64,000 bases of DNA from positions 1-64,000 of the forward strand of contig KZ538241.1 in the NCBI GenBank assembly GCA_000934665.2, given 5' to 3'. The position numbers and the translations under genes were made by a program. Of this stretch, positions 1,191-29,662 are shown piece by piece. The DNA is from Catajapyx aquilonaris (lineage: Eukaryota). Each line of letters opens with the position of its first letter. Positions within the stretch are counted from its first letter, which is position 1. The notes below the pieces were generated by a model. The model did not search any database, had not been told where the DNA came from, and saw nothing but the letters and a program-made list of their open reading frames with translations.

Positions 1191-2442
1191 CCGGAAAAGG
1201 GGGGAAAAAAACTCAGGCCCTGGGGTAATGCAATCCCTCAAAAACTCCGTCATCAAAGGGTGATTTTCCAAAAACTTACTACTGTAATGCGATGTCCCGG
1301 CATATAATAACTCAAAAATGGCTTGACTGAGAGAGTTGATTATTTAACATCTGTTGAAGCAGTTGACACCTAGCCATCCCCATGCAAACAAACTGAGAAA
1401 AATATTAAATTACCTTTTGCTGCAAAAAAATGTCCGAGGGCCTAGAATCACTCTTCCGGACATGTCCCGATCATATTATATTTAAAGCATACTATATTTT
1501 CTTGCCATTTTATCATTAACATTAGACATGTTACAATATTATAATTAAATTGTACATACTTGACGATATAAAACAGCATCTTAAAAACAATTTAATCATT
1601 TGACATGACCTTGCTGCATCACCCCAGAGTATGTCCCGAGTTTTCATGTTACTCTCCTGGATCAGGATATTTTAAGAAAATTGCAGCGAAACAACTGAAT
1701 TTTTTACTCAGTTATTTGGCAACAATCCTTCTCCATGAGACCTTGATTTAACTACTGATTTCAGTGCAAAAAGTACGTCTCCTAGTGGGTTTTTAAAAAA
1801 TTAAGGAGTTATAAATTCATTTATGTAGCACATTTTTCACTCACACTCCTGGCTCAATTTTCTACGGCACATAATGAGTATTATGTTTTGAAATAACTTT
1901 ATTCCATGGCATGAATGGACCTCATCACCTGACAGTTTCTAGAGTCAACATTTGTTCTGGACCGTGTTATTAACCCTAATGCATCCAAAGGTCATTCTTC
2001 TGGGTTCTGGCTGCCAAACTCCTGGCAATAATATTTAACAATATTAATATTTTAACAAAATTATCGTTCTTGAACAAGATGCGACTCAAAAAATTGGCCA
2101 TCATCAACTAGTGTCTGAAAAATTAATACTGTATTAAAATTCTGGCAGCTTTTTAGTGCCGGCCGTGGCCATTTCAAGTGCAAAACAATGGGAAATTCTC
2201 GACTTTTGAGCCCAGGTTTTCACTACTTGGGGGAGGCCTCATGATACGAGGAGCGTTCATAAAATTCGTACCTTTGGGTTTGAGAAAAAGAGAGAAAAGG
2301 TTCAAATTGCAATAATACGTAATTACCAACACCATATACGCATAAATCTGTGTTTTTATTGTTCGCAGGGCATATATGCGATGTTATGCACATGCTGTGC
2401 CCCATAGCAAACCCATAAGACAGTTCTTACCCACCAGGTTAA

Positions 2443-3369
2443 AGGGACACTCCAGTCTGAAGACAAGTTGATGTCTAAAAATCAGGCAAAAAATCCTGAC
2501 TCCAACGCAAAAATCAGTTTGTCTCAAAACAGAACCGTAACCGGGGTCGCGGGGTCAAATCCTCGCCGTCTGCTAACCAAGCAGAGCCGCCACTCGGGGA
2601 ATGGCAGTTTCAATGCGTTTTTCCCTATTCGGGTGTGTCGCCGCCTGCTGAGGATGATGTCAAACATCAAGCAGTCATACCTTTGGGATGGACCTAAGCG
2701 TTATTGTATGCGCATCTACAATTAGCTGCTACTTTTAGCTGCTAATTAGGTCCATGAATCCCAAGATGGCGGCGCCCGGGCGGTCGAGAGCTAGTTGTAG
2801 CAAGTTGTAGTCACACGGAGGAGTACCGGTAAGTACCGGTAGTACCGGCTGATATGTAAATGCAGCTGTAAATAAATGCGTCAAATGCTGTCGCAGGTGA
2901 TGTGGAGGGCCCCGCCGAGGTTGGCAGTGGCCCCAGTGGGGAAGGAGCGGGCTACATGGAGCCTAGCTGGCACGGGTTTCTCCCCTACCAATTCCAGCTT
3001 CTGGTTCCGGTTCCGAGTTCCGGGCGGTTCCAACCCCACCCAGTAGGTTGGAAAAAAATTGTATTTTGTTGCGCTTGGATCCATGGTTGGATCCGCCGCA
3101 TTAACATTTATACATTTTCAATCACGCGCGCCAGGCATGTACGGTCGTCGTTTCGCCACCCACCCGAGTGAGGCGCCACTTACGGCGAGTAGGCGATTGA
3201 CACGCCTCCCGTGACGTCACTCCGCAAGCGGGGGATACGAATGCTGCCAACTTTGACCTTCTCTCCGGGCCTTACGGTTCTGTTTTGAGACAAACGGATT
3301 TTTGCGTTGGAGTCAGGATTTTTTGCCTGATTTTTAGACGTCAACTTGTCTTCAGACTGGAGTGTCCCT
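2443..3369. mobile_element. Non-autonomous Kolobok-type DNA transposon (MITE)
   Basis: 98-bp near-perfect TIRs (2443-2540 and 3272-3369) starting AGGGACACTCCAG. TTAA on both sides (2439-2442, 3370-3373). Purine-purine termini with a TTAA TSD fit Kolobok. Confidence 0.85.
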
Positions 3370-3377
3370 TTAAGGAT

Positions 3378-4387
3378 TTACTGGGGACCTTTAAAACACT
3401 CTTCTATTGGCTTGAAAGTGGTGCAGTCCTTCGCATTGCATTTACTTCCTGTCAAGGTGGAAAGTGCGTAAGTTAATTGATTGCACCAGGCATTTCAGAA
3501 TAATTGCGATTACATTCGCATCGGTTGAAATATCGTGGGCTCTCCTGCGACAAGTTGGTACTCGTGTCATTTTAGTAGATCAAAGAACCCATTGCGTATT
3601 CATTCATGAAATGTGCATTTTCGGCCACATGATATGACTTTGTTTTATCCCTTCTCTCCTTAGGGCACCAACAGCACTAGTGGACGTTTGCGATATTTCA
3701 GCCGATGTGTAAGCCTAACTCCGAAACACATGATATGCATTGCATAATATGTCAAATATACAGTAATATTGTAGTTACGCTGTTCCTTACCTGCGTTTCT
3801 CACGCAATCTTGAATTTCCTTATCAAGTCCTGCCACTTTACCGTCAGGACCAGGGCACTTTTTCAGCTCATCAAAGAATGTGTCGCAGTCAAATGTACCA
3901 TCCTCCTTAAGCTGCATGGAACAAATTACAGTAGATGTGTCAAAGAAAATTTTGCTCAAAATAGTTTTGTGATGATCAGTGATCGAACACTGTTGGTAGA
4001 AACTTACCGTACCAGCCGTCTTGAGTGCACATCTAATTGGGCACTCCTAAAAATAATGAGTTTAGTAAAATTAATGACGCTGTACTTTTAAATTAGTGAA
4101 GTATATGTTTACCGGGTCCTCGTCAGCGCATTTTCGGAAGTTTGGGTCCGAAAGTTTACACTGTAAGAAAGTGATGTCGTATAAGTCACATTAAACTTAT
4201 GCTCTGAAGTTGATTGTCCTTGCGATTACAACACCGCTAGGGTAATCAAGAGTCACTCTCTATTCCTGTGGTGATTTGATGTACCGAGAGTCTTAATTGA
4301 GTAAACCTGACTTACCTCACCATCACCCTGAGCTTGATTGCTCATGAATAGCACAGCCACGCAGCAGAAGAAAAAGACAGTCTTCAT
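3378..4387 (-). CDS. Odorant-binding-protein-like secreted protein A (116 aa, 10 Cys in mature part)
   Basis: Exons 4387-4316, 4160-4113, 4046-4008, 3911-3791, 3448-3378, all GT-AG and in frame: MKTVFFFCCVAVLFMSNQAQGDGE/CKLSDPNFRKCADEDP/ECPIRCALKTAGT/LKEDGTFDCDTFFDELKKCPGPDGKVAGLDKEIQDCVRNAG/SKCNAKDCTTFKPIEECFKGPQ*. Signal peptide, C-X3-C followed by G.L.EDG.FD, terminal C-X8-C. Confidence 0.85.
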
Positions 4388-4435
4388 GGTTTACCCTCAA
4401 GTGAGAAAATGATAATCATTGCAGACTTTCACGTC

Positions 4436-4443
4436 TTTTTATA
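4436..4443 (-). promoter_or_regulatory. TATA box of OBP-like gene A
   Basis: TATAAAAA on the minus strand about 50 bp upstream of the ATG. TATA-like boxes lie at similar distances before genes B (~6537-6544), D (~10262-10269) and F (~18494-18502). Confidence 0.6.
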
Positions 4444-5512
4444 GCGTTGCTGTGCCATAGGGATGATTGATGATGTAATTGTGTCACCTTGCACTTATTG
4501 ATGCCATGCATTCCATGGTGTGAATTATGCAATTTCCTTCTGATTTGTTAAGAACAAATGCATGGGTGAGGTTATTTCCTCAGTTCGTGTCAGGATGCTG
4601 TAGAATTCCTGAATGACGTGTAAATCACGCCAGTGACCACAAACCTACACTACATCTATACTGTGCATTGTGTATTTAAAAAACTCACTTTTTGTTGACC
4701 ACTGAATGCAATTTTTTTATGCCTTTGGGAGATCACAGTTTTCCGGTGACATGATATGTCACAATTGTCACTGACAGTGACTTGACGTGCTTTAAAAAGT
4801 ATCGGCCTTGTCCTTTCACTACTCCATGCAAAGTGTTGGGCATTTAAGAGCTAATTACCAGTACGTAGCGTCGTAGACTATTAGAGATAGTATATTGTTC
4901 ATTTTTTAAAAGAAATTGCGTGACGGTTTGTCCCAATTGAAGGGGTATCCGGCGGTATCAAAAGAACCGCAATAATAATGGCTTCTGCATTCCTCATAAC
5001 TTACATAAGATTGTTTTTCCTTCATTTATCTTAGGTTTAACTTCAGAGTAGGTATAACTTCGAATGATTTCCAACCCGTAGATGCGTTACCAGCACGGTA
5101 GTTTACTCTGAAGGCCTTACACGTGACCTCCGAAGCTTTGCTGCCAAGAGTAGAGCGCTGAATATGCAGGGACAGGGTGGGAAGTTAATTGATATTAACT
5201 TTCAATTACTACCCAGCATTCACTCAGAACCACCACCAAGAAAAATTATCTCGGACAGGAAAACTTGCACGAGCAATGCAATGATGGACCTTTTATTCAC
5301 ACCTTACCCCCTTGAACCATGGAGATGTATATAGGACTGTAATGATCCAGAAACTGAAAAAAATTACAAAGTAGGTACAAACAGTATACTAGCACCAAAC
5401 ACTAAACATATTTGCCTGTACTGTGTATTGTATGTACATTATTACGAACATGCCTTACTTCACACCAAACCAATACGATTTTGTCACCCACATTCCGAAA
5501 AATTGATGATTG

Positions 5513-6490
5513 TTAATGAAAACAGTTGAGTAAGTCGTCGTAACTGGAGCAATTTTTGTCATTGCATTTTTCTCCTGGAAAGGAAGGAAAGTGTTTCAGT
5601 TTCTGAAATACACTGAATTGTCAATTGTCGTTTCAACTGAATTGTCCGTATAGCAGTGTTTATGAATATTTGACATTAAGCAGCTTATTTTAAGCAGTTT
5701 CTTTGAGCAGCTGCTTTTGTAAGTTATAAAATATTTTTGTTGTTACCGTATTTTTTGGAGCAAGCTTTTTCGTCGTCATTCAAGTCTGATACTCCTCCTG
5801 GGAGGGGGCATTTTCTCATCTCAGCAAAGAATGTCTCGCAGTCCAATACACCACCATCTTTCAGCTGTGTGCGAAAAGTGATCCGTATCGAAAATGTAGC
5901 TTTGTGTGCTTTACACACAAAAAAAGTGCACATTGTCATTGTCTGTGCACTTTGTGACTCTTTATAAAGTCTATTCCATCACCAGCAGTCACCGACCATC
6001 ATCATATGCTTTATTTATCATGGTCCGGCCTGCAGCAACGTCCACGTGGCCGACCAACAATGCCTTCACATTTTATTTATACACCATAAAATCACATACA
6101 ACACAAATACATTAGACATGATTTCATATCTTTAAAAATTGTAGCAGTCACCGAGCACTATACTTACAGTTCCAGCTTTCTTGAGTACGCATCTCATTGG
6201 GCAATACTGAAATGAGCTCAGTGAAATTATTGGCGCTACAGGCCTACATTTAAACTAGTAAGGTGTAGTGGTTACCTTATCCTCTTTCTGGCATTCTTTG
6301 ATGCTCTGGGACGACAATTTACACTAAAAAAAATGACACCGCGTAAGTTGCACGAACATTGCACTAATAGCAGCTATAATGAGACATCATAGTAACATGC
6401 CAGTTCGTTACTTACTTCGCTTTTATGAGTGTGAACTTGATTGCTCAGGAACAACAGAGCCAAACCGAAAAAGAAAATTACGATGTTCAT
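5513..6490 (-). CDS. Odorant-binding-protein-like secreted protein B (113 aa, 10 Cys)
   Basis: Exons 6490-6416, 6323-6276, 6206-6168, 5864-5747, 5574-5513: MNIVIFFFGLALLFLSNQVHTHKSE/CKLSSQSIKECQKEDK/YCPMRCVLKKAGT/LKDGGVLDCETFFAEMRKCPLPGGVSDLNDDEKACSKKYG/EKCNDKNCSSYDDLLNCFH*. Closest paralog of A. Confidence 0.85.
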
Positions 6491-7062
6491 GGTTTATCCC
6501 CGAGTGAGAACATCAGACATGCATATTTTCACGTTGTTTTTATATCCCTACTGTAGTAGGATGTAACTTTTTCAGCTTGCTCGTGTATCATGCAATCCGC
6601 AATTACGTCATTTCCTCCCTATTTGTTAATGACAATTGCTTGTGTTTGATTTATCCCTCAGTTCCTGTCAGTAAAATTCTAAGAACAAATTATCGAATTC
6701 TATGTCAAACATGTTATTCCAAAAAAATAAAATAAGAAAAATAAAATAATAGAGGCTGCTGTCTTGCAACTTATCAGAAGAATTACGGCTTTACAATTAC
6801 TGAATATCGGAGCTGGTTATTATCGGTGTGTGTTCATTCACTTACGGAATAGCGTCAGGAGAGGAGCTACGTATTTTGGTCCCATTGCGATAAAGGGAAG
6901 AAACGTAAGGAGCAAGGCTATATGACCAACCGAAATACTCGTACTGAATGATATACAGTACGTCATAATACCGTACAAGAAGAGACGCGTTTCCGATGTC
7001 ATGCAGACCTTTATTGTTCATTTCCTTCTTTTCCTACGATAGTTACACATTTACCTCCAGTA

Positions 7063-7818
7063 TTAGCGTTTTCCCGGCGGTTTTTTCAAGCAGGTCCTAT
7101 AATTGTCGTAACAGGGGCAGTCGTTATACTTGCATACACTTTCTGAAAATGAAATGTGGCATTAACATTATTGCGAAATAACATACTGTCATAGTTAGAA
7201 AAAATAATAATCTATCACTTACGCCACTTTCTCATGCAATTTGGTACAAAACTAGGAAGTGGGATGGGCGAACATGACTGCAATGCAGCTGCTACTTTTT
7301 CAACGGCCACAGTGCCGTCCTTGCTCAACTGTATCGATTAAAAAGTTGTCTCTTAGAAGATAATTATCAGAATACCGTGCAATCATGTTACAATATGGTC
7401 ACACTTACCGCGCCACCTTTTTCAAACGTGCATCTTGCGGCACATCTCTAAAAATGGATAGGAGAAAATAGGCTGTATCAGGCGTAATATTGAAATTGAT
7501 GTACAACCTACCTCGTCTGCCTCTTTGCAGGCACGAAAGTAGTCAGAATGGACTTTACACTGTAATTGAAAGACTGCGTGTAAATTTCATACAAATAATT
7601 ATTGTTACCTGCAATGATACGAGACCAATCTCTCTGGTTGCATCTGATTGTTTGATTATACAAGTCACTGAGTAGGGACTCCTCTTGATTATTTAGCAGA
7701 ATTTCAATGACACTTAGGTTGCATTATTGCATCGGCTTACTATTACCTGAGCCTGAACATCATGGATCAAAATCAGAACAGCACCGCAGGATAGTATGAA
7801 GGCAAACACCTTCTCCAT
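7063..7818 (-). CDS. Odorant-binding-protein-like secreted protein C (114 aa, 10 Cys)
   Basis: Exons 7818-7747, 7559-7512, 7447-7409, 7328-7223, 7142-7063: MEKVFAFILSCGAVLILIHDVQAQ/CKVHSDYFRACKEADE/RCAARCTFEKGGA/LSKDGTVAVEKVAAALQSCSPIPLPSFVPNCMRKWQ/SVCKYNDCPCYDNYRTCLKKPPGKR*. Absent from the ORF track. Confidence 0.85.
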
Positions 7819-8267
7819 GGCTATCTCATGATGTGCAGACTCAGCTTCATGCGTTGCGACTGAAGCTTTCGAGCTCTATTGTTCTCCGTTATATGGCTGA
7901 TAGAGCCTAAACAATGAGTGCCTTGCAGGTCATTAATACATTTCCTGTCTACAGTTTCATTTTTATTTCTCGGGAACAAATCATATTCTCCAGCCTCGTT
8001 ACGTAATTCCAATGAAATGATGTGCAACAATACAATGGAGCGTGACACAAATGATAATAAATTGCAAGTCATCGTTTTATAGATGTCGAGGTGACGCCTT
8101 GGATTTTATTTCTGAAATTTAATGGCATTTTCTGAAGTTGATCTGTATGACGCTTCAGTGTACTGTTATACTTATACACTGAAGAGTCTACAGATCTACT
8201 TCAATAGGTCGAGGCTTGTCATTGAGAATCATACGTACTTTCAAAAGCATGCTGTAAATGCCATTAA

Positions 8268-8792
8268 CCCTTTGCTGCCTACGGACATCATAATATGATG
8301 TCCTGCTGGTTTTTGAACTGGGAGCGCTAGAGTTTACACAAAAATGGTGCAGTTTGAGGCTCAAACTGCACCTACCACCTCGTGGAAGGGGGCTCAACTA
8401 CCATGGCGTATGCTAATCAGTTTTCCCCCCTCCCAGAGGGAGCTAAGCCTACCCCCTCCCGCCTGAAAGTTTTTGACAACATGCAAAGTCTGGACTCGTG
8501 GTAATTTCTCAAAATACAGTGTTTTAGTAGTATTATGTAACCACAGTAACAATTTTATAGTGACGTTAAAAATTTAAATAAATTTAATTACGATTCAAGT
8601 TAATTGCACTTTAAAATTTTTCTGGACCACCCTGTAGATGAATTTTTTCGGCATTTTACATTCAAAAGGACCACCACGAGTTGAAATGATAAATATTGGA
8701 GCATATTGTTTTTCATTAATATTACTCCTACTAGAAATTTATTTTTTTCATAAAGAGACTAAAATGGCCAAAAAAACTCAGGCATCAAAGGG
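8268..8792. mobile_element. piggyBac-type non-autonomous element
   Basis: TTAA|CCCTTTGCTGCCT ... AGGCATCAAAGGG|TTAA: short TIR with one mismatch, TTAA at 8264-8267 and 8793-8796. Confidence 0.75.
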
Positions 8793-9097
8793 TTAAATTA
8801 CTGTATAGAAGGAATAAGGTGAAGGCTACAGTTTTCTAGCCATTACCATACATATAGCACACAACTATTATTATTATTAATGTTGAGGGTATGCACCTAT
8901 AGTACGTGCGTCTCTGAAATTTTTAGAATGTAGGTCACACTTGATGTGCAATAAAAATGATCCATTGCAGTTATTGTTCAATCATACTTCTCGCACCATT
9001 CTTCACTTGTTGATACAAACGCGGGCAACGTACTGGCATGCTTGTGTTGTCATCAATGGAAGTACACTATAGGACGTGCTATCGGTGCAGTCTCTCC

Positions 9098-10203
9098 TCA
9101 ATGAGAAAAACACTCATCCAGCTTATCGAAACCACTGCAATCATCTGCATTATACTCACGAGCTGTATGAAATGTGGGAGAAACCAATTAATTATTATTG
9201 GAACTATACTAAAGGGCCATTCTTAGCCATTTCATTTCACAAACGAGCTTTATACACTCGCTACATGTAAAAGGGGGATTTCAAAACTCGTTTGGGAAAA
9301 ATAGCGTATGTATACAGGGTGTTAATCCTAAGCGTGTCACCAGAAAAGGTGGTGGTAGAGGGCCAAGGTGTGAGCATTTTTGCATAAGGAACTAGGGGTC
9401 GGAAACGCACCCTCACCGAGTTACGCCCCTTTCAAGTTTGCGGCAGGCAGTGTGCAAGAGGCGTGCGGCACGCGGCGGAGTGACTCGGTGAGGGTGCGTT
9501 TCTGACCCCTAGTTCCTTATGCAAAAATGCTCACACCTGCGCCCTCTACCACCACCTTTTCTGGTGACACGCTTAGGATTAACACCCTGCATATGAACTT
9601 ACGTTTTTTTACGCATTCTAAAATCCGATTTTTTATATTCTCGTGGCTATCCTTCAGAAGACAAGCTTCCAAAAACTGTGAAAACTTGCTAATATTCGGA
9701 GTGTTATCCTCTTGGAGCTGAATTGTAATTAAAGATGAGAATTAAGTGGTTATTATCAATACACTAAAGTGTATACGTATGTTGCATTGTGTACTAACCG
9801 CTTCAATCTTGCCCATCATGCATTGCATAAAGCACTGGAAAGCAATAATAACAATAATTAGGGGATCATTATTTCTATAGTATTATTAGTGTAGGTACTA
9901 GTGGTCAACGCTAATGAATATGCAGGGTTGTATCAACAGGCTCAACAGAATTGTTGTATTAATTTGAGTTGATGCAACCGGGCCTAACTGTCAGTGACAT
10001 TTACCTTGGGCTTATCCTCTGTGTCTATCCTGCACCGATGTACATCGAGTGGTTTTTCTTCCGGGCACTGAAGAGGTACACATTATTTGAAATTATGCTG
10101 TACTTTGTATAGCACATGCTTAGTTTACCTGATAAGGTTCAGCTTGAGATTTGTTCCCAACGAGTATCGCACAGAGAATGATAAATAAACCGCTGTGCTT
10201 CAT
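9098..10203 (-). CDS. Odorant-binding-protein-like secreted protein D (117 aa, 8 Cys)
   Basis: Exons 10203-10129, 10067-10005, 9834-9799, 9717-9603, 9162-9098: MKHSGLFIILCAILVGNKSQAEPYQ/CPEEKPLDVHRCRIDTEDKPK/CFMQCMMGKIEA/LQEDNTPNISKFSQFLEACLLKDSHENIKNRILECVKKP/REYNADDCSGFDKLDECFSH*. Confidence 0.85.
9315..9589. mobile_element. Tc1/mariner-type MITE in intron 4 of OBP-like gene D
   Basis: CAGGGTGTTAATCCTAAGCGTGTCACCAG ... CTGGTGACACGCTTAGGATTAACACCCTG with ~105-bp arms. TA on the left, CA (probably a mutated TA) on the right. Confidence 0.85.
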
Positions 10204-11101
10204 GTCTAATGCTTTTTTTTTTGCAAATGTTTCGATGATTTATGGGCTCGGCGTACCTTCATTTATATACGGTTCAGTGCTTTGAGTGCACAATTCATGT
10301 GGACCATGCATTTAAAATGAGATCCGGGTTTTTTACTCCGTCCATTTACAATGCTTCCGGCATACGTAGGTTTTGTACAACAAGTGCCATTGCCAAGGTC
10401 AATTCCTCGTGATATCTTTACAATAGTTGCCAATCGCGACTGAGCTGTGCTGAAAAAAACGTTGCGACAAGCAGGAATTTAACAGAAAGTAATCAGCTTG
10501 CTTTTGTGCGTTTCTACTTTTTTGTTGCCCTTGTTGGTCCTTTTCTAGCTGTCAGAGTTGGCTATGAAAAAAATAGTTGTTTGTACACTACAAGTACGTA
10601 ACGTACAAAAAATAGTATTATCTTGTTCTTCTGAATGCTGTAATGTGAACAACATACTGTGTAACAATATTGTAAAACTAGCGAATTTCATAATGTTCAT
10701 AATGTATAATTATTCATTCCATAATTCCTTCAACATTGAATCACTGACTTATGTAACGCTTCTTCTACATAATACAAAAAGTACACAGTTTGTTGAAGGT
10801 TGCCGGATATCTTGAATAGAAAACAGATGCCCTCTGACCCACTTGCTTCCTTCTTATGTCAGATCATTCAGTGTGCTGGCTATGAAAATAACTGCAGATT
10901 TAATTGTAATTGTTGGCGCAGGGTTGGAAATTACTTCCACAATTTATTGAATGAAATACTCGTACATTGTGTATGTAGCAGTGCATTTTTTGTTGTGCAT
11001 CATTTGTGCTTGAGTAATACAAGTAAGCATAGTCGCATGTCGTCATAATTCATAAATCCATATGGGTGTCACACTGTAGGCTAACTCCAGTGTGAAGGTG
11101 G

Positions 11102-11821
11102 CTAATTATCTGGCAAGCAATCTCCCAACGCTTTGTAAGAGTCGCAACTATCTTTTCGCACATTAGGGGCTGTGAAGGTGATGTGAGTTATTATTAATAC
11201 CAGGCGTAGCAGTGTATTCTTCCTGTTACTTACCAGCTTTCTCAAAGCATCCGCGTTCCCCATCAGTAGCATCCGTTTGGTCGCTTTTTAATTTACAGAC
11301 ACTTATGAACTTACACATATTTTCAGTGTTAAGTGTCCCATCTTCATTCAGCTGGAATGAGCGAAAGGAGTAACACCTGCGTTGGAACAGACTTGATCTA
11401 ATCTATTAAAATAATCTTCATTGATTATAAGTTATATCAATTTCACTCACCGCGCCGCCCTTTTCTAAAATGCACTTTGTTTGACACTGAAACATTGTTC
11501 AAACAGAACATTACTGATTAGTACAGCATTATATGTACGGACAATGTATAATTTATTAGTGTTGAACATGCGGTGCTGCAATACTTACGTTGTCTTCACC
11601 TTCACCGTCAGGACACTCCACATCCCATTTTTCTGGTGGAAAGGCACACTCCTGTGTAAATGATACAATGTAAATATTATAGTGAAAGTTGGCAGTACGG
11701 GCCATAATTATCCTAAAAACACAATACTGAAATAAGTCTTGCAGTAACTTACACCATCCGCCAGGGCATGATCGCTCAAGAATGTTACAGCGCCACATAT
11801 AAAAAGTAACAATAACTTCAT
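11102..11821 (-). CDS. Odorant-binding-protein-like secreted protein E (117 aa, 9 Cys)
   Basis: Exons 11821-11753, 11651-11589, 11486-11451, 11351-11234, 11169-11102: MKLLLLFICGAVTFLSDHALADG/ECAFPPEKWDVECPDGEGEDN/CQTKCILEKGGA/LNEDGTLNTENMCKFISVCKLKSDQTDATDGERGCFEKAA/PNVRKDSCDSYKALGDCLPDN*. Confidence 0.85.
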
Positions 11822-13060
11822 GTTGAATGTTCTGTAGGAGTCTCCCGATGAGGACTGCTGACTTTTTTGATTGTAGCTCAGTAAACAAGCAATAACCAAG
11901 AAGGTAAGTTCAGAAATATTGCGCTACACTCCCTTCCTTCTGTATTACGTGTATCACAGTTTTATGGTGTCACTCCACATGTCCTTGAAACATTTGGTGA
12001 TATATTGCGTTCACATCACATTTGAAGTGAAAGAAAGCTCGTTTATTGTCCTAATTGCATGCGAACGTGGAGGATCCCGGATACAAATACTCAAATATCT
12101 GCTGCAACAAAATATTGTATGACATACGCATCCTGGAGTCATCAACGAACATGACAGAGAGGGCTCTAGAATCTAACGCTAACTTCCCATGAATGCCATG
12201 TGAGAATAAAGTGTGTTGAGTGCTGACCTGTATCCTGTATGCAGACGTAGGGCCTATTTAATCTCGAAATTTTAATTCGAAGTCTTCTGTCCCATCTGTG
12301 GTCGTGAAGTACATGATGTGCCTACTCTGGATCTGGTCAAGGGCCACCCCAATGAGAAGCCAAAAATGAAGTTGAGTGAATAACACTTCAGTATTATGAT
12401 GTCAGGATTTTGGCTGCCTCTCATTGGGCCTGTGAACGCATATGCTCAGGCTGAATCTGGATGGATGAGTTGTTGCCTCTACTTTGATGCTTCAATTCTT
12501 GAACCATCTCTTGCTTGCAACTTGCGTCCTCTGGTTTCAGGCAAAAAAAGTGGCGAATCCAGTCAGGAATCTGCAGAATGCCAACACTACTCCTGCAATG
12601 TAACCACAGCCAGATGCCTGAATAAATAATGATTAAATGTTAATCTACACCATCATGGCAAACCGCAAGAACTTGTCTAGAATGGAAATTGCCTGTTCAG
12701 TACCTTTACTTTAGTACTTTACACACTATGGCAAAAGTTCATTAAAAATACCTGACCAGACCAAACAAAAATTCCTTTAAAATTAAATAAAAAATAAATA
12801 AACCATAAGATAAACAGATTAATTAATTAATTAACCAATAAATAGATAAATAAATATATGTTTTCACTGATTCCAGGGTCTGCTACAGGTCGATTAATTC
12901 ATTGCATATGTCCTTGAATAAACCCACCAAGATCTCATACAGCTTCATTCAATTATTGTACGGTACAGACACACTCAGTTATAAATGTCAAATATTCGCT
13001 TGAGAACTTTACATCGAATCTGGCAAGCCTGAAAGGACATACCAGCTGCTTCTACAGCAA

Positions 13061-14165
13061 TAATAATTTAATAATTCATAATTCATACGTTATCAGCAAG
13101 GTTATCAGCCATCGGCTCGTTAGGGGGGAAATTAGTTTTGCCTGGAACTATTTGCTTTTTTTTATTTTACTGTGCTCTTTGTGATAGGATAGGGACGGAA
13201 GGAAGCGGCTGTGGTCTATTAACCCCTTCGGCCCCAGATCGGCCCGAACCACACAGTTTTTGGCTTACGCGTACTCCGAAGATACGGACAAGATATTTTG
13301 CAAATAATAACAGCTATACTTACGAGATCTGGGAAAACCCTATGAATGTGTCTGGAACCATTTTACTCGTCTAGAAGTCCTTAAATTAATTTCCAAAAAA
13401 GGGCTATAATGACTCGAAATTGGACTACTGCCGCCCAACTTTTAGGCTGATTTAATTATGAAATGCGTGAAAATATGCGGAATAACAACTTTGAGAACCA
13501 TGCCAGACGAATTTGCTGAAATCGTCGTACTTTGCGAGAAATAAATTAATACTTATTTGCGGCTTTCTGGCACTTCGGAAAGCTTCGGAAAACTCCCAAA
13601 TTTATTTGTTTCTCATGCAGTACGACGATTTCAGAAAATTCATCACATACTCATTTAGGAGTTTTCCTAAGTGCTGGAAAGTCGCAAATAAATATTAATT
13701 TATTTCTCGCAAAGTACGACGATTTCAGCAAATTCGTCTGGCATGGTTCTCATGGTTGTTATTCCGCATATTTTCACGCATTTCATAATCAAATCAGCCT
13801 AAAAGTTGGGCGGCAGTAGTCCAATTTCGAGTTATTATAGCCCTTTTTTGGAAATTAATTTAGGGACTTCTAGACGAGTAAAATGGTTCCAGACACATTC
13901 ATATAGGGTTTTCCCAGATCTCGTAAGTATAGCTATTATTATTTTCAAAATATCTTGTCCGTATCTTCAGAGTACGCGTAAGCCAATAACTGTGTGGTTC
14001 GGGCCGAAGTGGGGCCGAAGGGGTTAATTACGGAAGCAACTCCTGAATTTTCCTGGAAGGACCGTGGGAAACCACAGAAAACCACAGAGTTGCCGGCCCC
14101 GGGATTTGATCCCAGGACCTCCTGATTAGCAGTCAGACACCATATCCCCTCCTCCAACCTGCTTC
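13061..14165 (-). mobile_element. tRNA-derived SINE (family 1), split by a MITE insertion
   Basis: 14165-14024 plus 13222-13061 align to the intact copy at 36700-36995. B-box-like GGGATCAAATCCC and an AT-rich tail are present. Confidence 0.85.
13223..14023. mobile_element. piggyBac-type palindromic MITE (801 bp, ~375-bp arms)
   Basis: TTAA|CCCCTTCGGCCCC ... GGGGCCGAAGGGG|TTAA. The arms 13223-~13600 and ~13652-14023 are near-identical inverted copies. Confidence 0.9.
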
Positions 14166-14291
14166 GGTTTCTTCTACAGTAATACTGTACCACCTGAACA
14201 TGACACAAAACATATTAAAACCTGATCATGAAACCTTGAGTTTATTCTCAGTAGTACAAAAAACACATGAATATTTGTACTTTCTTTTGCA

Positions 14292-17200
14292 TCAGTTCTG
14301 GGTTGTTTCTTCTGCCTCAACCTTCTCTTGTCCTGAAAGTAATAAGTGATTATTTTAAACAAATTTATGAATAATATATAATTAAAGGAAAATCCACATA
14401 GAGAAATTGTTTTCACCTTGTTTCATACCTAATAATCAGTTACCACTATATACCACTATATACTGTATATAATTATATATACCACTACTTCATAACTCAT
14501 ATTGCATTGTACAGCATCAGAATATGATTGAGATGGATGCTTCTTTTGACATAAAATGCAGTGCATACATTGGGAGATGAGTTTTAAAATGAAATGGGCT
14601 TCTGAAGCCTATGATTTTCAATCACATCTACAAATGCGTTATTTACCAGTGCTAGTCCTGATGGTCCAGGTTTTGCCACTTGCAACTGGTCTAGCTCACG
14701 TTTTAAAAATCCTTGTCCCTTTCCCCCATACCTGATAGCTACTGTGGTATGCAGGGTCTGCTCAAATTGATGAGTTCAGATCAACTCCATAGAAATCCAG
14801 TGTACACCACCATGTTTCTCGAAGTGTAAGTCATAACTTGCTTACATTGCAGCAGCACAATTACTTTCATACTTTGCAATAACATTTTTTTTAAATGTAA
14901 TTGTTAAGGCAACCAATAGCAGACTCTGGTAGTCATTGCCCAAGTCTGGCTCACCAATGAGAAGGGGTTATCAATATGTGCCTTTTTCCTAACCCTGTAG
15001 TCTGCCATCAAAGCATACACGCTAGCTGCAGGTGACATAATGAAATGCAACAATTCCATGCGTCTGTTTTTTCAGTGCAATATAATCAGTGAACTGATTA
15101 AAAATGTTGAAGCATAATACCCCATCATGCATAACCAATTTAAGACCATTGTAGCTATCACCTGACGACTTATGAATATTGCGAGTAAACAATTGGGTAC
15201 AGATTTTTTTGGAACTATTAAAGCTGCTCATTTTATGCAGTCACTTTTAATAGTTACTCTATTATTCTATTGATTAGCTGCTAATATTAGGAACCATCCA
15301 AGCTCTGAATTACAATGACTTCTGATCGGTAATGTCCCAGTGAGAAATTTGCCTCGAACATCAGTAACTGAACCCACATTTACAGACCAGAGCCCCTTGC
15401 AGCATTGAAAAGGATGGGCCTGTGCAACCTAATTTTAGAAACTAATAATATTGATAGCCCCTAAAATAACTGGTCTAAAGTAATTTTTAAAATGAGCAGC
15501 TTAGTGCCAAAACCAAAAGAAAGCCCAAAAAACACTATTATAATACAGTATAATTTCAATTAGATTCCCCTGCAAGTTAGTTATTTCAAAATAGGTCCTA
15601 TAAATGCTGGTGGGCCTCTGCATTGGACCACAGTGTAAGAAAAGCTGAACTACGACAGAGATCCCATTTCATTGTCAAAGATGTCCCATGATACAAAAAT
15701 CCTGGAATGTGCTGTGTGACAATCACCCACACCTGTCTCCCACTTCTTCCCATCATCTTGAGATTGTTGCTTCCCAGAATCCCTAGTCCGCGCCTTAGTC
15801 TCGCTCATATTCCAGTTGCTAGCACCAGCTGCCATCTCTGCTTCCTCCTGCGATTCTGAAATTATTATAGGTTGAGAAATTCCGCCAAAACAAACTAAGG
15901 GCTTTCAGTTTTAGCAAATGATACTTCTCAATACCTGAATACGTCACGTAAAGAAAGTTATTGAACTACAATGTACTCACCCATATCTAAGTCTGACTTA
16001 TGTACGTCTTCTTGGGAGTGTTCCTCGATGGGATTGTTAGTCTCATCCACAGACATTCTGCCTAGAGTTTCTTCCAGCTGCTGGGCAGCAGTACTCGTTG
16101 GGGGAACGACCACTTTTGTGTAGTAGAGAATACAGGCGAAGTGTCCAAGCTGTGGAAAATAAACACTAGATTTAGTCTAATCATTCACTTTGGGCAAATG
16201 TCTGGCAAATGTTTCCAGCTGCACACTTCAAAATTAGAGCATTGGATATAAAGTCTCAGTAATGATTTATGGCAGTACCTTCACATTCCAAGATATTGTA
16301 GATGCTGTAAACTGGGGATATGCAGAGTGCAGCAGTATACAACTTACCAGCCGATCTAATGAGGATTCCATGAAGCACTTCTCAAGCAACATTATCTCTA
16401 AAATGATCCTGGGTTCCTTCAAGCCATTGAGAAAAGCTTGGTCTGTCAATTTCCTGAGACTCTTGTAGGTGTCGGAGGAGATCCTGATCTTTGTCAGAAC
16501 TGGCACAGGCTGAGCGAGGTACATCTCGTAGAGCAAAAACAAATACGCTGCCCTGATTTTCATCATATTGTATTTTTCTTGTGGATTCAGGAAGCAATAC
16601 AGTAAGTGGAAATAAACCGCTTCAGTAAAACATTGCAGCTGCGCGTGAGTCTGGCGGCCCCTGAAACAGATTAATTAGTACTTTAAGTAGCCTGATACAA
16701 ACAAAATTAAATTCGCACTTGGAAAATATATTAAGTTAATGGCATTAAAAAGCCCATTCAATGATTATAATTTTTTGCCCAGGTGATGTAGTGACTTACT
16801 TGTAGACCTTGTAGAAGCGCTTCTCCCTCCACAGATCCATGAAGGAGGCCAGGTCTTGCTTCTTCATCTGGACCCAGTTGGCCATGATGAGACGCTCCAC
16901 GTCCTCGTCGAAGCCCTTGGCGCACCCACCAGGCACCCAGCGCTCTGCCACTTTCACCTTGGGCAAGGAGGTGGCCGAGGACTGCTCCGATGACGGAGTG
17001 GGTCCTTCGCCCTCATCCCCAGACTGAGGACAGGGCCCATTGCACGTCGCACCACCATCACCCCCGGCATCGCCTCCTGCTGCTCCTCCCTCCGTGTCCT
17101 GATCCCCGCTCTTCCTTCCCCTGGGCGCGGCCCCCGACCTGCCCCTGCGAGTTCTGCCCCGCTCGCCCCTGGTGCGCTGCGAGGCTCCTCGACCCACCAT
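14292..17200 (-). CDS. SNAPC1: snRNA-activating protein complex subunit 1 (SNAP43/SNAPC1) homolog; 3' exons uncertain
   Basis: Exons 17200-16800, 16660-16348, 16149-15981 and 15855-15733 (or reading on to a stop at 15650); possible last exon 14332-14292. Spliced core GFDEDVERLI...FMDLWREKRFYKVYKGRQTHAQLQCFTEAV...IRAAYLFLLYEMYLAQPVPVLTKIRIS...LLEKCF matches the SNAP43 N-terminal domain as I recall it (F..LW...F..I..GR, IRVGALYLLYGLYNTQ...KIRV). Confidence 0.8.
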
Positions 17201-17404
17201 ATCCAGCACACCGTCAGTCGTCCTTGTACTGCACGGAGTACTCGCTGCTTTGTTCCCGACACGACAGTGGGAGCATGCGGCGAGGCGAGCACCCGTCGGA
17301 GGGGAGATGCGTTCAACCGACGCTCAACTGCCGCACTCAACGGTCATACCTGTGCGTCGAGGCCTCTGCGCATCCTCATCCCCACTGCCTTCCAATGTTG
17401 CCAA

Positions 17405-17442
17405 CAGCAATTACGTCACCCACCTAACGTCACTTCCTGGAG
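17405..17442 (-). promoter_or_regulatory. Candidate TATA-less housekeeping promoter of SNAPC1
   Basis: Minus strand reads CCAGGAAGTGACGTTAGGTGGGTGACGTAA: an ETS-like GGAAGT and two TGACGT CRE-like sites, directly upstream of a GC/CpG-rich first exon. Confidence 0.45.
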
Positions 17443-17675
17443 GGATAACTTTTAAATTTTTGAAATCCTGAGGATGGGTGGCACTTGGTCCTGGTATGGC
17501 ACACTACAGCATGATCACTTCAACGTCGGCACCCGTCACGTCACAGCAGGTTTCAGAAAAAGAGAACCACATGAACCATGATATGGGCAGTCAACAACTG
17601 CACTTATTTTTTATTTTCAAATCATCCCGGGGAGTAGTACAGTGTTTCCACCGAGGTCTCCACGTCGTTGCAGGT

Positions 17676-18412
17676 CTACTGCGCCGCTATGCACTCTCGC
17701 AGTTCATCGTATCCGGTGCATGCGTCTAAATCAAATGTCTCTGGAAATTGAAACAAAGCGGTTGCCTACATGTTGCTTCAATGGGTTGTGCGATGAGGCA
17801 AGGTGGGTTACACAACGCCTTACGATTTTCCACGCAACCGTAGATCCTGTCCCATACTTTTTCGGGGGCATCACGTAGAGCGCACTCCTTCAGATATTTA
17901 CAGAGAAAATCTTTGTCTATTGCCGTACCATTCTCATCCATCTGGGAAATGATGTTATAGTCGCAGAGTGCAAGAAAGGATAACATTTCGCTAGTTTTAA
18001 TTGTTAGGTTTTACAGGCATACTCACCATCCCAATTCTATACATCAGGCACTGCATCATACACTGAAAATGTAATATTTTCATTTCATTAGTACGTTGCA
18101 ACTGCGAGCTATATAAGACTATAAAAAACCGAATAATGTTGCTCATTGACAAGATGTATAGGGAAGGAAACTGCTATATGTAATACTTCTTTAGTTACCT
18201 CAGGCCTCGCTTGTGTTTCGTGTTCACATAGTTCAATATCTTGAGGCCCGTGCTCTGGACACTAGAGAAAAACATAACCAGATTGATACGTATGACCTCT
18301 GTATAGTTACGTGGAGTAGTTTTACCTCACGTATCTCGTACTCTTCAGCTTCCGTTCCAAAGAAAACAGCAGTCCCCGCACAGAGCAGGAGGATAGCTAC
18401 GTTCAGAATCAT
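17676..18412 (-). CDS. Odorant-binding-protein-like secreted protein F (117 aa, 9 Cys)
   Basis: Exons 18412-18326, 18261-18199, 18062-18027, 17941-17824, 17725-17676: MILNVAILLLCAGTAVFFGTEAEEYEIRE/CPEHGPQDIELCEHETQARPE/CMMQCLMYRIGM/MDENGTAIDKDFLCKYLKECALRDAPEKVWDRIYGCVENH/ACTGYDELRECIAAQ*. CMMQCLMYRIGMMDENG is a classic OBP-like segment. AATAAA at ~17615-17610. Confidence 0.88.
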
Positions 18413-18668
18413 GTCAAACTGTCGCGAAACGCAAAGTAAGTTCAGGATTTATAATTGCGCCTAGCACATACACAGAGTTATTCCCATGAGTCATTATATA
18501 TACGCACGCTAACCGCTAACGTGACTGACATTTTCAGAGGAACTATAAGGCAATGGAAGTCCGGGTTTTTTAAATTCCATCTCTCACACAGTGAACGGAA
18601 GGTACTTCCGCTGCTCAAGTCATGCAAATCAAGGTGACTGTATAGCGATATTGTTTCATTTGGTGCTA

Positions 18669-19349
18669 GGAAATTTTGTCCCCGACAAAACGTCCCCGGA
18701 AATTCGTCCCTGACAAATTACGTCCCCGGAAACAAACGTCCCCATCGGGGATGTTCCAAGGGAAAGAGGAAAATCATGTCGCCTACAGTGTAATAAAATT
18801 AATATCCATATTAAAGTCTAACCTCCTTCCAGTAGGCCGAGTAGGGGATCTCCGTGAAAATGAGTTCCTTCAAAGCTCAGACGAATGCCAATAGAAAGAC
18901 TTTCATATCGAGAGACAGATTGTGGCAGGGATAGGGGCACGTTGTACTGTACCAACCTACCCCATGACCTAACTTTCCTTCCCAGCAGATGCAAGCCTAT
19001 TCTTCAGCGGATACACACAGGCTATCCTTCAGCTAGTTCACCAGATACTAGCATATAGGAAAGCAGGTAAAAGTGTGGGGGTCTCCCAAAGTGATAGCGT
19101 AGCCATGCCAAACCTACATGTATACTACGATCTGTGCTGTCTAATGTGGGATACTCCAGTGCTGACTGTGCTGTGGGGATTGGATAACATTGTCCTTGAT
19201 TAATTATCTTGTATCACTATACACTCTATTTTAGAGACTATATTTTCCGTGGGGTTATCCCCGATGATGGGGACGTTTTTTCCGGGGATGTAATGTGTCA
19301 GGGACGAATTTTCGGGGACGTTTTGTCAGGGACGAAATTTTATAATTCC
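18669..19349. mobile_element. MITE with subterminal CGTCCCC/GGGGACG repeats
   Basis: The left end has several tandem (A)CGTCCCC units (18676-18745) and the right end carries the inverted array (19260-19340). Exact termini and TSD unclear. Confidence 0.7.
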
Positions 19350-19979
19350 TTTAGAATTTCCGTCTGTTTTGTTGAACACGTCGAAAAATTAGAACAAAAC
19401 TATGCAGTAATTTTTCATTGCATTAAATGGTAGCTATTGGAATTTGGAAGCGCTTACAGGTACAAGCATGATGTCATGAGGTCATCAAGTCCTTGGTGAA
19501 CGAATCAACGTACATCCGCAGGCAAGAAAGCAACTAACACTTCCTGCAAAAACCAAATTAGTATATCTCACAAGTACACACCTCGGCAGCCTAATCCGAA
19601 CATGTGGTCGAAACTAGCTCCTATACGAGCACTTACTACCCTTCGTACCAACAAACCACAAATACAACAATCGGAACCAAGCACACGTAAGTTACTGTAC
19701 GCATACCTATAAAGTATATAAACTATAAAGGGGGAAGAACGTAGCAGGAGAGGTCAGGGGACAACGGCTCCCGAACTCGGCCCCCTATAGCACCCTATGT
19801 AGATGGCAAAAAATAAATAAAAATTTAAAATGTGCTCCTTTGAATTGTAGCATATGTAATGACTGTTGTAGTATATCAGTGATTTTGGCATTTGGGAACT
19901 ATGAATAAAGTTCACTGTTGACGTTATGATTTATTTAGTTTATCAGAATTGAAGAAGGTTGTGCAGGTTGGATCACATT

Positions 19980-20028
19980 ATATATACCCCATATACCCCA
20001 TATACCCCATATATCCCATATATCCCCA
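19980..20028 (+). repeat. (ATATACCCC)n short tandem repeat
   Basis: About five copies of a 9-10 bp unit. Confidence 0.8.
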
Positions 20029-20256
20029 TTTTCAGAGTATTATTTTAGAGTGCTGATGTCTGACTGTACCTTTTTATACGGATATACAACGGAAAACCTG
20101 AAATACAAATGATCATAATTACAATCGACTATATCAAGATGGGGAAGTTTGCCCTTATGGAATTCGTTAATAAATATCATCAGTTTTCCCTATTTCAATT
20201 ACCTTATATTACTCAATGGGCACGTAACATAGACTCACGAGTCAGATATGATGACC

Positions 20257-21071
20257 TCAGTGGTAACCAGGATAACCAGGGTGACCACATTTAAATATAT
20301 TTCCGTAACTCTCACAGTCGCTGGGGTCACATTCACTTCCTGAAAATAATGCCACGTTACATAAACAGGTGCTGAGAAAATACTGAAATGAAGTGCATGA
20401 GTGATCCGCACCATTTTTCCTTATGCATGCCTGTTCCTCTTCTGTAAATCCATCCGAAGGTCCTCCTTTTTGCTTCCGGCATTCAGTCATGACTTGAACT
20501 AACATGTCGACGTCAATTGGACCGTCCTCCTTCGTCTGCATTGGTAAAACAACAAAATCACTTCTATCATTTCAAACACATGAGTTCTCAATCAGAACTA
20601 TCGCAACCAGTAAGAATATCGAGAGAAGAGCATGTGAGTCATATATAGGCACATTTATGAAGATGTAACACTATAATTATGGTGCTTCATTAGTTTAAGT
20701 AGATTTGAGATTTGGTCAGGTGAGGCTATACAACTAAGGACGGAGTACTTACGGCAGCAATCTTCTCTACAATGCATTTGAAGGGACACTAAAATGTAAG
20801 GTATTAAAACGTATTCGTTAATTGCATGTTACTGCCGTGAAAGAAGTACAGTAGGCCTACTACTTACAGCAACACCTTCACTAGTACACTGCTTCATGAT
20901 TATACCTTCGCTATTTAAGGGACACTATCAGAAAAATTAGTTGTTAGCGTATCATGTTCAATAAGAGTATATGTCCAAGCTGATGAGTTAGTAACTTACG
21001 TCAGCATAAGTTTGATTGATGAAAAGGAGAAAAACCCCGCAGGAGAATGCAAAGGTACGCATTGCCTTCAT
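20257..21071 (-). CDS. Odorant-binding-protein-like secreted protein G (123 aa, 9 Cys)
   Basis: Exons 21071-21000, 20924-20868, 20788-20753, 20535-20412, 20339-20257: MKAMRTFAFSCGVFLLFINQTYAD/CPLNSEGIIMKQCTSEGVA/CPFKCIVEKIAA/TKEDGPIDVDMLVQVMTECRKQKGGPSDGFTEEEQACIRKNG/SECDPSDCESYGNIFKCGHPGYPGYH*. Confidence 0.85.
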
Positions 21072-27299: not shown

Positions 27300-29662
27300 C
27301 TACCGAAGGATGCTTTCCGGATCCAGGTCCAGGTTGGGGCCGGACTCTTCTCCGCCCCCACATGAAAACGAAGAGCAATCTCTTTGTCTCACAGCTTCCA
27401 TCACATCCACCAGCAAGCTGCTCAGTCTGCTGGACACATCTCTGGGCAGCCTGAAAATGGGCGGCATCCTTCTTGAGAAATGCACAATGCCATACAACTG
27501 GGTTACGAAACAGGAATTGCGCCCTTGGCCCATCACCTAGTGGGCTTGTGACAGCTGTATCATCTTCTGTCACGGTTCCGGGCCTATCTGGGTAAGGAGT
27601 TTCCGACTTTCTCGAAGGGACCCCGCGGGACCTGCGATGGTCACCCAGGTCGCACCCAGTGTTATTTGTGGCCTCCCACGAAGACCGAGAGAAAGGCGGG
27701 TCCTTCCGCATAATTCGCGACGACCTACATGTAAGATGCTCTCTTACGGAGCCAGCTGGCATTCTAAAGCTTCCGTATTTCACGTACGGAATTGATAAAG
27801 CCAACAACAATGGCACCGCTGCAGTTCCTTTATCAGTTGTTGACTCAAAACCTGTTCGGCTCTCTCCGTAAGTAAGCACATAACCCAATGGGGTCACGGG
27901 GAAGGAGCCGCGCTGCAACTGGCTTCGAGAAATTTACTTCTTGATGCACCGAGAATAAGGATGTGATAATCCTTAGGAAAATTTAGTGCGGAGAAACTAC
28001 TTGGCCAAGCCCAGTACTGTCTTTCTTCCGCGATGTGTACGCAATGCTTACTGGACTGGGCATCAACCGGCTAGCTCTAAGCGTGAATCCTGTGGATCCC
28101 TTGCGTAATAGGGGTCCCCTCGTTAGTTACACACAAGCTGTTCCAAGATCAGCTCCTTATATCCGGCCCAGTAACCTACGCAATACCTACATGGAGAGAA
28201 ACGTGGTCATCCTCTTCTCCATCAGCATGACGGCGTCATCCTTCTGCTGCACCATTACGTCGCAGAAGATCCTCTTGGCGCATGGAGCTTCTCTCCACCC
28301 GCCGAAGCCCATGTCCTGCAGCTTCTCCAGGACGCTCCTCTGAGAGTGCTCCAGACTCTCCAGCAGGTTGTCCATGATGGGTTGGTCAATACCTGGTACC
28401 TGTCTCCTCTCCCTGCTTCGGACTTGTATCCCAAACTTGCCCATTTTGCTCAGGTACCAACTGAGGGCCAGTGCCCCGACCCCAAGGGCAGCTCCACCTG
28501 CAAGGACGGCTGCTGGAACCACGGCCTCAGACTTTCCAATCTTGTCCCCAACTTCGTCTATCTTCTTGCTGATCCCCAGGTTGTCGGATATCTTGACTGA
28601 GGCCTCCATCAAGGGATCGAACACGGGCTTGGTGAAGTCGCGGATCTTCTCGCCGACTTTTTGAAAGATGTTGGTCCGGTTGCGTGGACCGTGTGACGGG
28701 TAGGCGTAGTAGTAAGGGGGAAGGAGGTAGGTCACCTTTTGGGCAGGGGGTGCTGGCTGGATGGCAAATCGGATTGTCTTGCCGTGCTGGTCCTTTGGGA
28801 TGGGGATTGGGACGGTGAAGACTGGCTGTCCGGGGCCGGCTTGGTATGTCTGGGGCTGTATCACGAAGGCGTTGCTCGGAGCAGGCTGGATTCCGTACGG
28901 ATTAGCAGGTACGCCGGCCTTCTCTTCAGCAACGTCCTGCTAAGCAATGGGCAGTATTGTACAGGGTGTTTCTTAATGAAGTGGTATATTATGAGCACTC
29001 GTTAACATCACTGCTTCTCTAAGTCCGCCGCCAGACGACGCGACGCCTATACAAGCTTAATATTGTGCAATCTTATTTCATTAACTGATAGAACATTTAG
29101 CAGTGTGGGTATGCCTTAATAATTAACTTATTCAGGAACATCGTCTTAGAAGCAATGGTCAGATTGGGTCTACCTGGTAACCCTCTGATGAAGAGGCCTC
29201 GGGGGATTGGTAATTCATGGGTTGAAAACCATCCTCCTTCTTTGATGACGGAAACTTGATTCCCTTGGAGTGAAGTATCCTGCTCTGAATGGTCAGCGAC
29301 GCTTTCTTGGGAACCAGCACTCCGTTGATGACCCTTGCGTTGCGCCACACCTTCACCTTGTCCTCTTCATCATCCGGAACTCGAACTCCGACGATGGTTT
29401 GTATTCCGTCAGTTCCGACTTCGATACGACGTCCCTTGCGGCTCTTGTCTCCGGGCACGTCTTTCACTGACAATACATCAGAAGTGATTGTGATTGGCGG
29501 AGGCAGGGCAAACTCGTCGTCACTTCTTCTCTGAAGCACCGGGAGCTTAACCGTTGTCGTGTCGATGTCAGCCACAGTTGTCGCTTCTTCAGGAGGATCT
29601 ACTGTAGTTGTCGGCATCCCCGTGGCCGTTGCCACGAGGACCACAAGTAACCCTCGCCACAT
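27300..29662 (-). CDS. Uncharacterised secreted/membrane protein, ~461 aa, with DM4/DM12-like Cys tail
   Basis: Exons 29662-29174, 28936 (or 28939)-28191 and 27450-27300 join in frame (phases 0, 2). Signal peptide MWRGLLVVLVATATG, motif GVRVPDDEEDKVKVWRNARVINGVLVP, Pro/Tyr-rich middle, hydrophobic AAVLAGGAALGVGALALSWY, RERR site, then PCAKRIFCDVM...MEAVRQRDCSSFSC. Confidence 0.85.

Follow-up and report, generated by a model that had tools for sequence, protein, structure and literature searches.

Does the tandem array of small, cysteine-rich genes in the stretch of Catajapyx aquilonaris DNA analysed here (64,000 nucleotides, contig KZ538241.1; hereafter the window) encode a reduced form of the odorant-binding proteins (OBPs) of insects, or a secreted protein family of some other origin? 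An earlier note had described the array, at positions 3378-21071, as seven miniature OBP-like genes with an eight-cysteine core. We find seven intact paralogous genes that have an eight-Cys framework in common and have diverged in the manner of coding sequence, all of them models predicted from the sequence, and we consider the chances about even that they form a shortened, divergent branch of the arthropod OBP superfamily that arose by an old tandem expansion. The observation made in the earlier note is accurate, and the OBP interpretation placed on it is reasonable, if unproven.

Between 3.3 and 21.2 kb, the minus strand contains recurrent stop-to-stop open reading frame (ORF) pieces with hydrophobic N-termini after an ATG, a C-X3-C motif, a start in L-x-E-D-G, or C-X8-C before a stop codon. 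The first gene, g1, was read by eye before a constrained chain search, in which every five-exon GT..AG chain from ATG to stop within size limits was enumerated and ranked by splice-site quality. The search reproduced the seven same-strand, five-exon genes claimed previously, with intron phases 0,0,0,1 and an exon 3 of 36-39 nucleotides (nt), giving for each gene a single top-ranked model, with a layout common to all seven and re-translation free of internal stops. The limits given for the array also proved exact: the stop codon of g1 ends at 3378, and the A of the g7 ATG is at 21071. The models are the following (lengths are those of the precursors, in amino acids):

3378..4387, minus strand: g1, 116 amino acids; exons 4387-4316, 4160-4113, 4046-4008, 3911-3791, 3448-3378
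5513..6490, minus strand: g2, 113 amino acids; exons 6490-6416, 6323-6276, 6206-6168, 5864-5747, 5574-5513
7063..7818, minus strand: g3, 116 amino acids; exons 7818-7741, 7559-7512, 7447-7409, 7328-7223, 7142-7063
9098..10203, minus strand: g4, 117 amino acids; exons 10203-10129, 10067-10005, 9834-9799, 9717-9603, 9162-9098
11102..11821, minus strand: g5, 117 amino acids; exons 11821-11753, 11651-11589, 11486-11451, 11351-11234, 11169-11102
17676..18412, minus strand: g6, 122 amino acids; exons 18412-18326, 18261-18199, 18062-18027, 17941-17824, 17740-17676
20257..21071, minus strand: g7, 123 amino acids; exons 21071-21000, 20924-20868, 20788-20753, 20535-20412, 20339-20257

In each of the seven models, exon 1 (69-87 nt) carries a signal-like peptide, exon 2 (48-63 nt) two Cys, exon 3 the C-X3-C motif, exon 4 (106-124 nt) two invariant Cys, and exon 5 (62-83 nt) the C-X8-C motif and the stop codon, which is the distribution of cysteines that had been claimed. 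The introns, 61-440 nt long, occupy homologous positions: right before the first Cys, 0-1 residue before C-X3-C, 8 residues after C-X3-C, and 4-5 residues after the sixth Cys. Two structural subgroups can be distinguished: g1-g3, in which exons 2 and 3 measure 48 and 39 nt, and g4-g7, in which they measure 57-63 and 36 nt. Several details of the models are ambiguous or weak. The exon-4 donor of g1 may lie at 3791 or 3779, with equal scores; starts at 21071, 21062 and 21083 score alike in g7; and the donor of g7 intron 4, GTGCGG, is weak. This last intron (72 nt) is in frame and free of stops, so that its retention would also keep the frame open; intron 3 of g1 is likewise in frame and stop-free, and the genomic read-through of g1 exons 2-5 contains 9 stop codons. 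The length of g4 intron 4 (440 nt) is explained by a foldback/MITE-like inverted repeat inside it, with arms at 9311-9427 and 9477-9593.

Could these models be chance chains of ORFs, or decayed pseudogene copies, rather than functional genes? The presence of GT..AG at every intron is not independent evidence against this possibility because it was imposed by the model search; beyond these dinucleotides, 13 of the 28 donors read GTAAGT and all 28 acceptors read YAG (CAG or TAG). In an alignment of the seven proteins, pairwise identity is 17-46%, with g1 and g2 the closest pair (46%), and in spite of this divergence the copies share intron positions and phases, and all seven retain an open spliced frame together with all eight Cys. 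Mismatches between paralogues are most frequent at third codon positions, followed by first and then second positions, in all five pairs tested, as would be expected of coding sequence and not of chance or decayed frames. For g1 and g2, the nonsynonymous divergence (dN) is 0.41 and the synonymous divergence (dS) 0.79, that is, a dN/dS of about 0.5; synonymous sites are saturated in the other pairs tested. TATA-like boxes are found 41-66 nt before the ATG in four of the seven genes (including TATAAAA 56 nt before the g1 ATG and at -54 in g2, and TATAAAT at -41 in g6), and AATAAA or ATTAAA occurs no more than 400 nt after the stop codon in six of the seven (for example, AATAAA 48 nt after the g3 stop and 61 nt after that of g6). 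The points in favour of the non-gene explanation, apart from the imposed splice sites, are that no RNA run was listed for 3300-12000, that g1 has no polyadenylation signal within 400 nt after its stop codon, and that no 7-mer or 8-mer is common to at least four of the seven upstream regions. On this evidence, we regard it as very improbable that the array consists of anything other than functional genes.

No nucleotide-level repeat links the seven copies, and the duplications are therefore old. A comparison of hidden Markov models (HMMs) of exons 1, 2, 4 and 5, built from the seven genes, with the six-frame translation of the 64-kb window revealed no further copy, the next-best E-values being 0.098 for exon 1, 0.71 for exon 4 and 0.51 for exon 5; the exon-2 HMM scored its own g5 exon at only E 2.1, exon 2 of g5 being the most divergent. 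Rfam yielded 0 matches.

The precursors encoded by these genes are 113-123 amino acids long. Their N-termini are hydrophobic (best 9-residue Kyte-Doolittle mean 2.6-3.6), the residues at -3/-1, ahead of the first invariant Cys, are small, and the proteins are presumably secreted. Under a crude cleavage rule, the approximate mature chains comprise 92-100 amino acids (10.2-11.7 kDa), in agreement with the size of about 90-100 given earlier. Eight Cys columns are invariant in the alignment of the seven, with the spacing Ca-X9-11-Cb-X6-9-C-X3-C-X25-26-Cx-X11-17-C-X10-12-C-X8-C; the 6-9 residues that had been counted between C-X3-C and the Cys preceding it are thus recovered in every member. The description of the proteins as eight-Cys proteins holds for these columns but not for total counts, given that exactly 8 Cys follow the signal region in g4 only, compared with 9 in g5, g6 and g7, and 10 in g1, g2 and g3. 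The odd counts in g5, g6 and g7 could reflect a free thiol or disulfide-linked dimers. The approximate mature isoelectric point is 4.3-5.0 in five of the seven proteins, 6.9 in g2, and 9.0 in g3, the only basic member. Exon 4 opens with a conserved L-x-E-D-G-T-x-D turn. Hydrophobic periodicity peaks at about 95-100 degrees, a weak helical signal (hydrophobic-moment spectra), and secondary structure prediction with Chou-Fasman values gave no more than a weak helical signal either.

The argument for a relationship with OBPs starts from the spacing of the cysteines. The classic signature of insect OBPs is C1-X25-30-C2-X3-C3-X36-42-C4-X8-14-C5-X8-C6 (PMC5623005). We assigned the C-X3-C of the array to C2/C3 and the last three invariant Cys to C4-C6. 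Under this assignment, the C2-C6 spacers are X3, X37-43, X10-12 and X8, a strict fit to the classic pattern in six of the seven proteins, with g7 off by one (X43 versus X36-42). When 8 Cys are placed at random in 95 residues, the classic C2-C6 fit arises in 285 of 200000 cases (0.14%), and with 10 Cys in 1113 of 200000. In view of the common ancestry of the seven genes, the match counts as one observation only. The array proteins further resemble the classic OBPs (PBP_GOBP, PF01395) in being small and, in five of seven cases, acidic, in their signal-like N-terminus and helical tendency, and in the tandem arrangement of the genes. A Gly located 12 residues after C3 and followed by a hydrophobic residue is reminiscent of the turn that comes after helix 3 in several insect OBPs.

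A number of observations weigh against this assignment. The spacing match was found post hoc and is judged against a naive null. The classic C1-X25-30-C2 spacer is absent from all seven proteins: instead of a Cys 25-30 residues before C-X3-C, the array has two N-terminal Cys, at X6-9 and X16-20, so that the N-terminal part is far too short for the classic C1-C2 spacer whichever of the two is chosen, as had been claimed on the basis of the nearer one. There is, in addition, one extra invariant Cys inside the C3-C4 spacer, and the mature chains fall below the 120-140 amino acids usual for insect OBPs (PMC8222343).

Homology and fold searches, performed with contiguous translations of the window (fragments), belong on the same side of the balance. 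The fragments included two read-through pieces, namely exon 3, intron 3 and exon 4 of g1, and exon 4, intron 4 and exon 5 of g7 (85 and 92 amino acids). Pfam, PF01395 included, returned 0 families at E<=10 for all seven exon-4 peptides and for both read-through pieces, with HMMER filters discarding most matches above E ~0.1. In the PDB, the exon-4 profile retrieved 11 weak rows without an OBP among them (best E 0.33, CIDE and troponin C), the exon-5 profile one unrelated row and no OBP, and the two read-through pieces 0 chains at E<=10. AlphaFold, run without an alignment, produced for the g7 piece an all-helical model with a mean pLDDT of 62.3, in which the longest helix is the intron-encoded insert, and for the g1 piece an unusable model (pLDDT 48.2); in both of these low-confidence models, two helices correspond to exon 4. 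Searches by fold gave no significant match, and they are uninformative because the foldable pieces carry intron-encoded inserts. More generally, the negative results on OBP membership are weak because they come from fragments only, two of them with foreign inserts. The OBP-likeness claimed for the array is thus upheld in the C2-C6 spacers of six members, the small size, the secreted appearance and the acidity of five members; it finds no counterpart in a profile, sequence or fold match of the fragments searched.

Searches of larger sequence collections were similarly negative. The two matches of the exon-4 profile in a protein library were judged spurious, involving internally repetitive proteins of 434 and 632 amino acids with 8 matched stretches each; with its 39 columns, this profile reaches only near-identical sequences in a library that large. 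ESM Atlas contained no usable match for the g1 read-through piece, a protein database search with g1 exon 4 among longer proteins gave 9 candidates of which none scored, and a comparison of metagenome contigs with the g7 read-through piece gave 99 pattern matches of which 0 were confirmed. Protein databases likewise held no relative of two other ORFs of the window described below, one SNAPC1-like (111 candidates) and one of 707 amino acids (8000 candidates scored). The source genome and its close kin seem to be absent from the protein databases, and the silence of these databases on the array therefore says nothing about the novelty or spread of the family.

If the array does belong to the OBP superfamily, its seven functional genes would encode small (about 10-12 kDa), secreted, mostly acidic and largely helical proteins, in which four conserved disulfides would hold together a compact domain. 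Within this domain, the C-X3-C...C-X10-12-C-X8-C core would correspond to the helix-3 to helix-6 scaffold of OBPs round a hydrophobic pocket, and disulfides would run from C-X3-C to the N-terminal segment and to C5, and from C4 to C6. In classic insect OBPs, the six helices form a bundle with interlocked disulfides C1-C3, C2-C5 and C4-C6. In place of helices 1-2, the array proteins would have a short N-terminal segment, provided with two extra Cys and stapled, via the extra Cys in the middle of exon 4, to the helix that follows the conserved E-D-G turn. Their role would then be extracellular, to transport small hydrophobic ligands or to buffer them. Secretion, a helical fold, this pairing of the disulfides, an OBP ancestry and ligand carriage are inferences from the predicted chains, as are the more specific proposals of the earlier note, according to which a fourth disulfide would link an exon-2 Cys to the mid-exon-4 Cys, a helix would be deleted, the pocket would be altered, and the site of expression might be non-olfactory.

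The principal alternative is that the array represents a lineage-specific, secreted, disulfide-rich family unrelated to OBPs, for example with a role in a gland, in defence, as pheromones or as effectors, and that its OBP-like spacing results from convergence or chance. This explanation is favoured by the N-terminal third of the proteins, which fits no OBP pattern, and by the fact that profile, sequence and fold searches with the fragments tied them to no known family, even though negative searches with fragments carry little weight. It also agrees with the composition of the window, which is rich in orphan ORFs: Pfam returned 0 families for all 91 further ORFs searched, out of 163 of at least 75 amino acids, and among 9 larger ORFs the SNAPC1-like one alone matched Pfam. 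The fast divergence of the genes, with a dN/dS of about 0.5 in the closest pair, is typical of secreted effector and defence families. What this alternative explains less readily is the joint fit of three consecutive spacers together with C-X3-C and C-X8-C, which is rare under random placement (the 0.14% given above), as well as the agreement with OBP-like carriers in tandem order and, for the proteins, in size class, acidity and helical tendency. We rate an origin unrelated to OBPs as a substantial possibility, with a probability somewhat short of one half.

The L-x-E-D-G-T-x-D turn with which exon 4 opens raises yet another possibility, that the family consists of secreted calcium-binding proteins derived from an EF-hand. 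The canonical EF-hand calcium loop comprises 12 residues, with acidic residues at positions 1, 3, 5 and 12. If the Gly of the turn is placed at loop position 6, positions 1, 3 and 12 of g1 are T, K and T, and only positions 5 and 6 (D-G) fit. The weak PDB rows for the exon-4 profile include troponin C and a Kv-channel-interacting protein, at E 1.9-8.9, but these are not significant, and Pfam detected no EF-hand in the exon-4 peptides or the read-through pieces. An EF-hand origin accordingly appears highly unlikely.

Returning to the OBP reading, we compared the array with other groups in which the classic pattern is modified. Plus-C OBPs carry C4a between C4 and C5, and C6a and C6b beyond C6, which is itself followed immediately by a Pro (PMC5623005). 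Like them, the array proteins possess more than six conserved Cys around a C2-X3-C3 and C5-X8-C6 core. Unlike in Plus-C OBPs, however, the extra invariant Cys of the array precede C2 and fall between C3 and C4, C6 is followed by F, L, I or G and never by Pro, no later Cys occurs in any of the seven, and the proteins are much shorter. An additional Cys 4 residues before C5, present in four of the seven (g1, g2, g3 and g7), is not at the X9 position of Plus-C OBPs.

Outside the insects, comparison is possible with published descriptions. VdesOBP1 of Varroa (PDB 7NZA), which belongs to the OBP-like proteins of chelicerates and myriapods, divergent relatives of OBPs, is described as a protein of about 150 residues with Cys at 21, 41, 68, 111, 132 and 141 and no C-X3-C, in which the pairs are C1-C6, C2-C3 and C4-C5, a helix is missing in the N-terminal half, and the N-terminus is tied down by a disulfide (PMC8222343). 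The array shares with this type a final C-X8-C, an X42-like spacer before it, and expansion within a lineage; it differs in having eight Cys, a C-X3-C motif and a C4-C5 spacer of 10-12, whereas the VdesOBP1 type has six Cys spaced about 19, 26, 42, 20 and 8. OBP-like genes are reported from spiders, ticks and a centipede, and candidate carrier proteins (CCPs) from spiders (PMC5381604), with 1-4 OBP-like genes per chelicerate, 21 in the centipede Strigamia and, as far as the available text goes, none found in crustaceans (PMC5952958); in Tetranychus, twelve proteins with seven Cys each make up a second family, specific to the species (PMC8269058). Divergent, lineage-specific OBP-like expansions of this kind may serve as a precedent for the array. 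Spider CCPs, compared by description, are also secreted and fast-evolving, with a Cys pattern resembling OBPs and CSPs, species-specific clades and no reliable structural template, but in the accessible parts of these reports they are recorded from spiders and a scorpion only (PMC5381604, PMC5952958). No paper in the literature searched spoke of OBP-like proteins together with eight cysteines, and no usable data on OBP intron phases were found there, including the available part of PMC6720082. A more specific version of the OBP reading would make the array an undescribed clade of 'mini-OBPs' that kept the insect-type C2-C6 core, including the C-X3-C missing from chelicerate OBP-like proteins, dispensed with helices 1-2 and acquired a two-Cys staple linking its N-terminus to helix 4, and that is structurally intermediate between insect OBPs and the five-helix OBP-like fold of chelicerates and myriapods, possibly in a lineage without reported OBPs; we advance this version tentatively and consider it less probable than not by a wide enough distance to call it doubtful.

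The array is embedded in a region with a G+C content of 38-52% across the window and a CpG observed/expected ratio of 0.78, which is invertebrate-like rather than vertebrate-like; between 14001 and 16000 this ratio drops to 0.33, compared with 0.63-0.97 elsewhere in the window. The other features that we recorded are:

16267-17323, minus strand: SNAPC1-like gene (snRNA-activating complex subunit 1), located within the array, with g5 and g6 on either side
13218-14028; 9311-9593; 2439-3373; 18671-19340; 1-1149: foldback/MITE-like inverted repeats, with arms of 65-248 nt that are 91-98% complementary
43348-45471, 57103-59580 and 59766-62699, plus strand: very long intron-free ORFs rich in Ser/Thr/Pro, of 707, 825 and 977 amino acids
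24451-25065, plus strand: orphan secreted-looking gene, Gly-rich
28187-29710, minus strand: orphan secreted-looking gene of two ORFs, in which R-S-R-E-R-R comes after a hydrophobic stretch

For the ORF at 16267-16674, the match to PF09808 has an E-value of 8.1e-15, and in ESM Atlas the SNAPC1-like ORF retrieves SNAPC1 clusters only; the G+C-rich ORF at 16796-17323 probably holds the first exon of this gene. One of the inverted repeats reaches to within 5 nt of the g1 stop codon, the largest is situated in the gap between g5 and the SNAPC1-like gene, and the start of the window contains 128-nt tandem units in inverted arrangement. No Pfam family was found for the three long ORFs or for the two orphan secreted-looking genes. 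The 825- and 977-residue products show a hydrophobic stretch and then an Arg/Lys run near the C-terminal third, and each of the two orphan genes has a final domain that carries a similar C-X5-C motif.

What the array means for the evolution of these proteins depends on which of the two main explanations is correct. Should the family be unrelated to OBPs, it would add another to the lineage-specific families of secreted, Cys-rich proteins and be of no more than local interest. If its members are true relatives of OBPs, they would be among the smallest in the superfamily and would possess a new disulfide architecture, and the array would demonstrate that routine annotation misses short-exon families such as this one. 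According to the available text of PMC8269058, no common precursor has been found for insect OBPs and OBP-like proteins. As true OBP relatives, the array proteins would bear on the relation between the OBPs of insects and the OBP-like proteins of chelicerates and myriapods.

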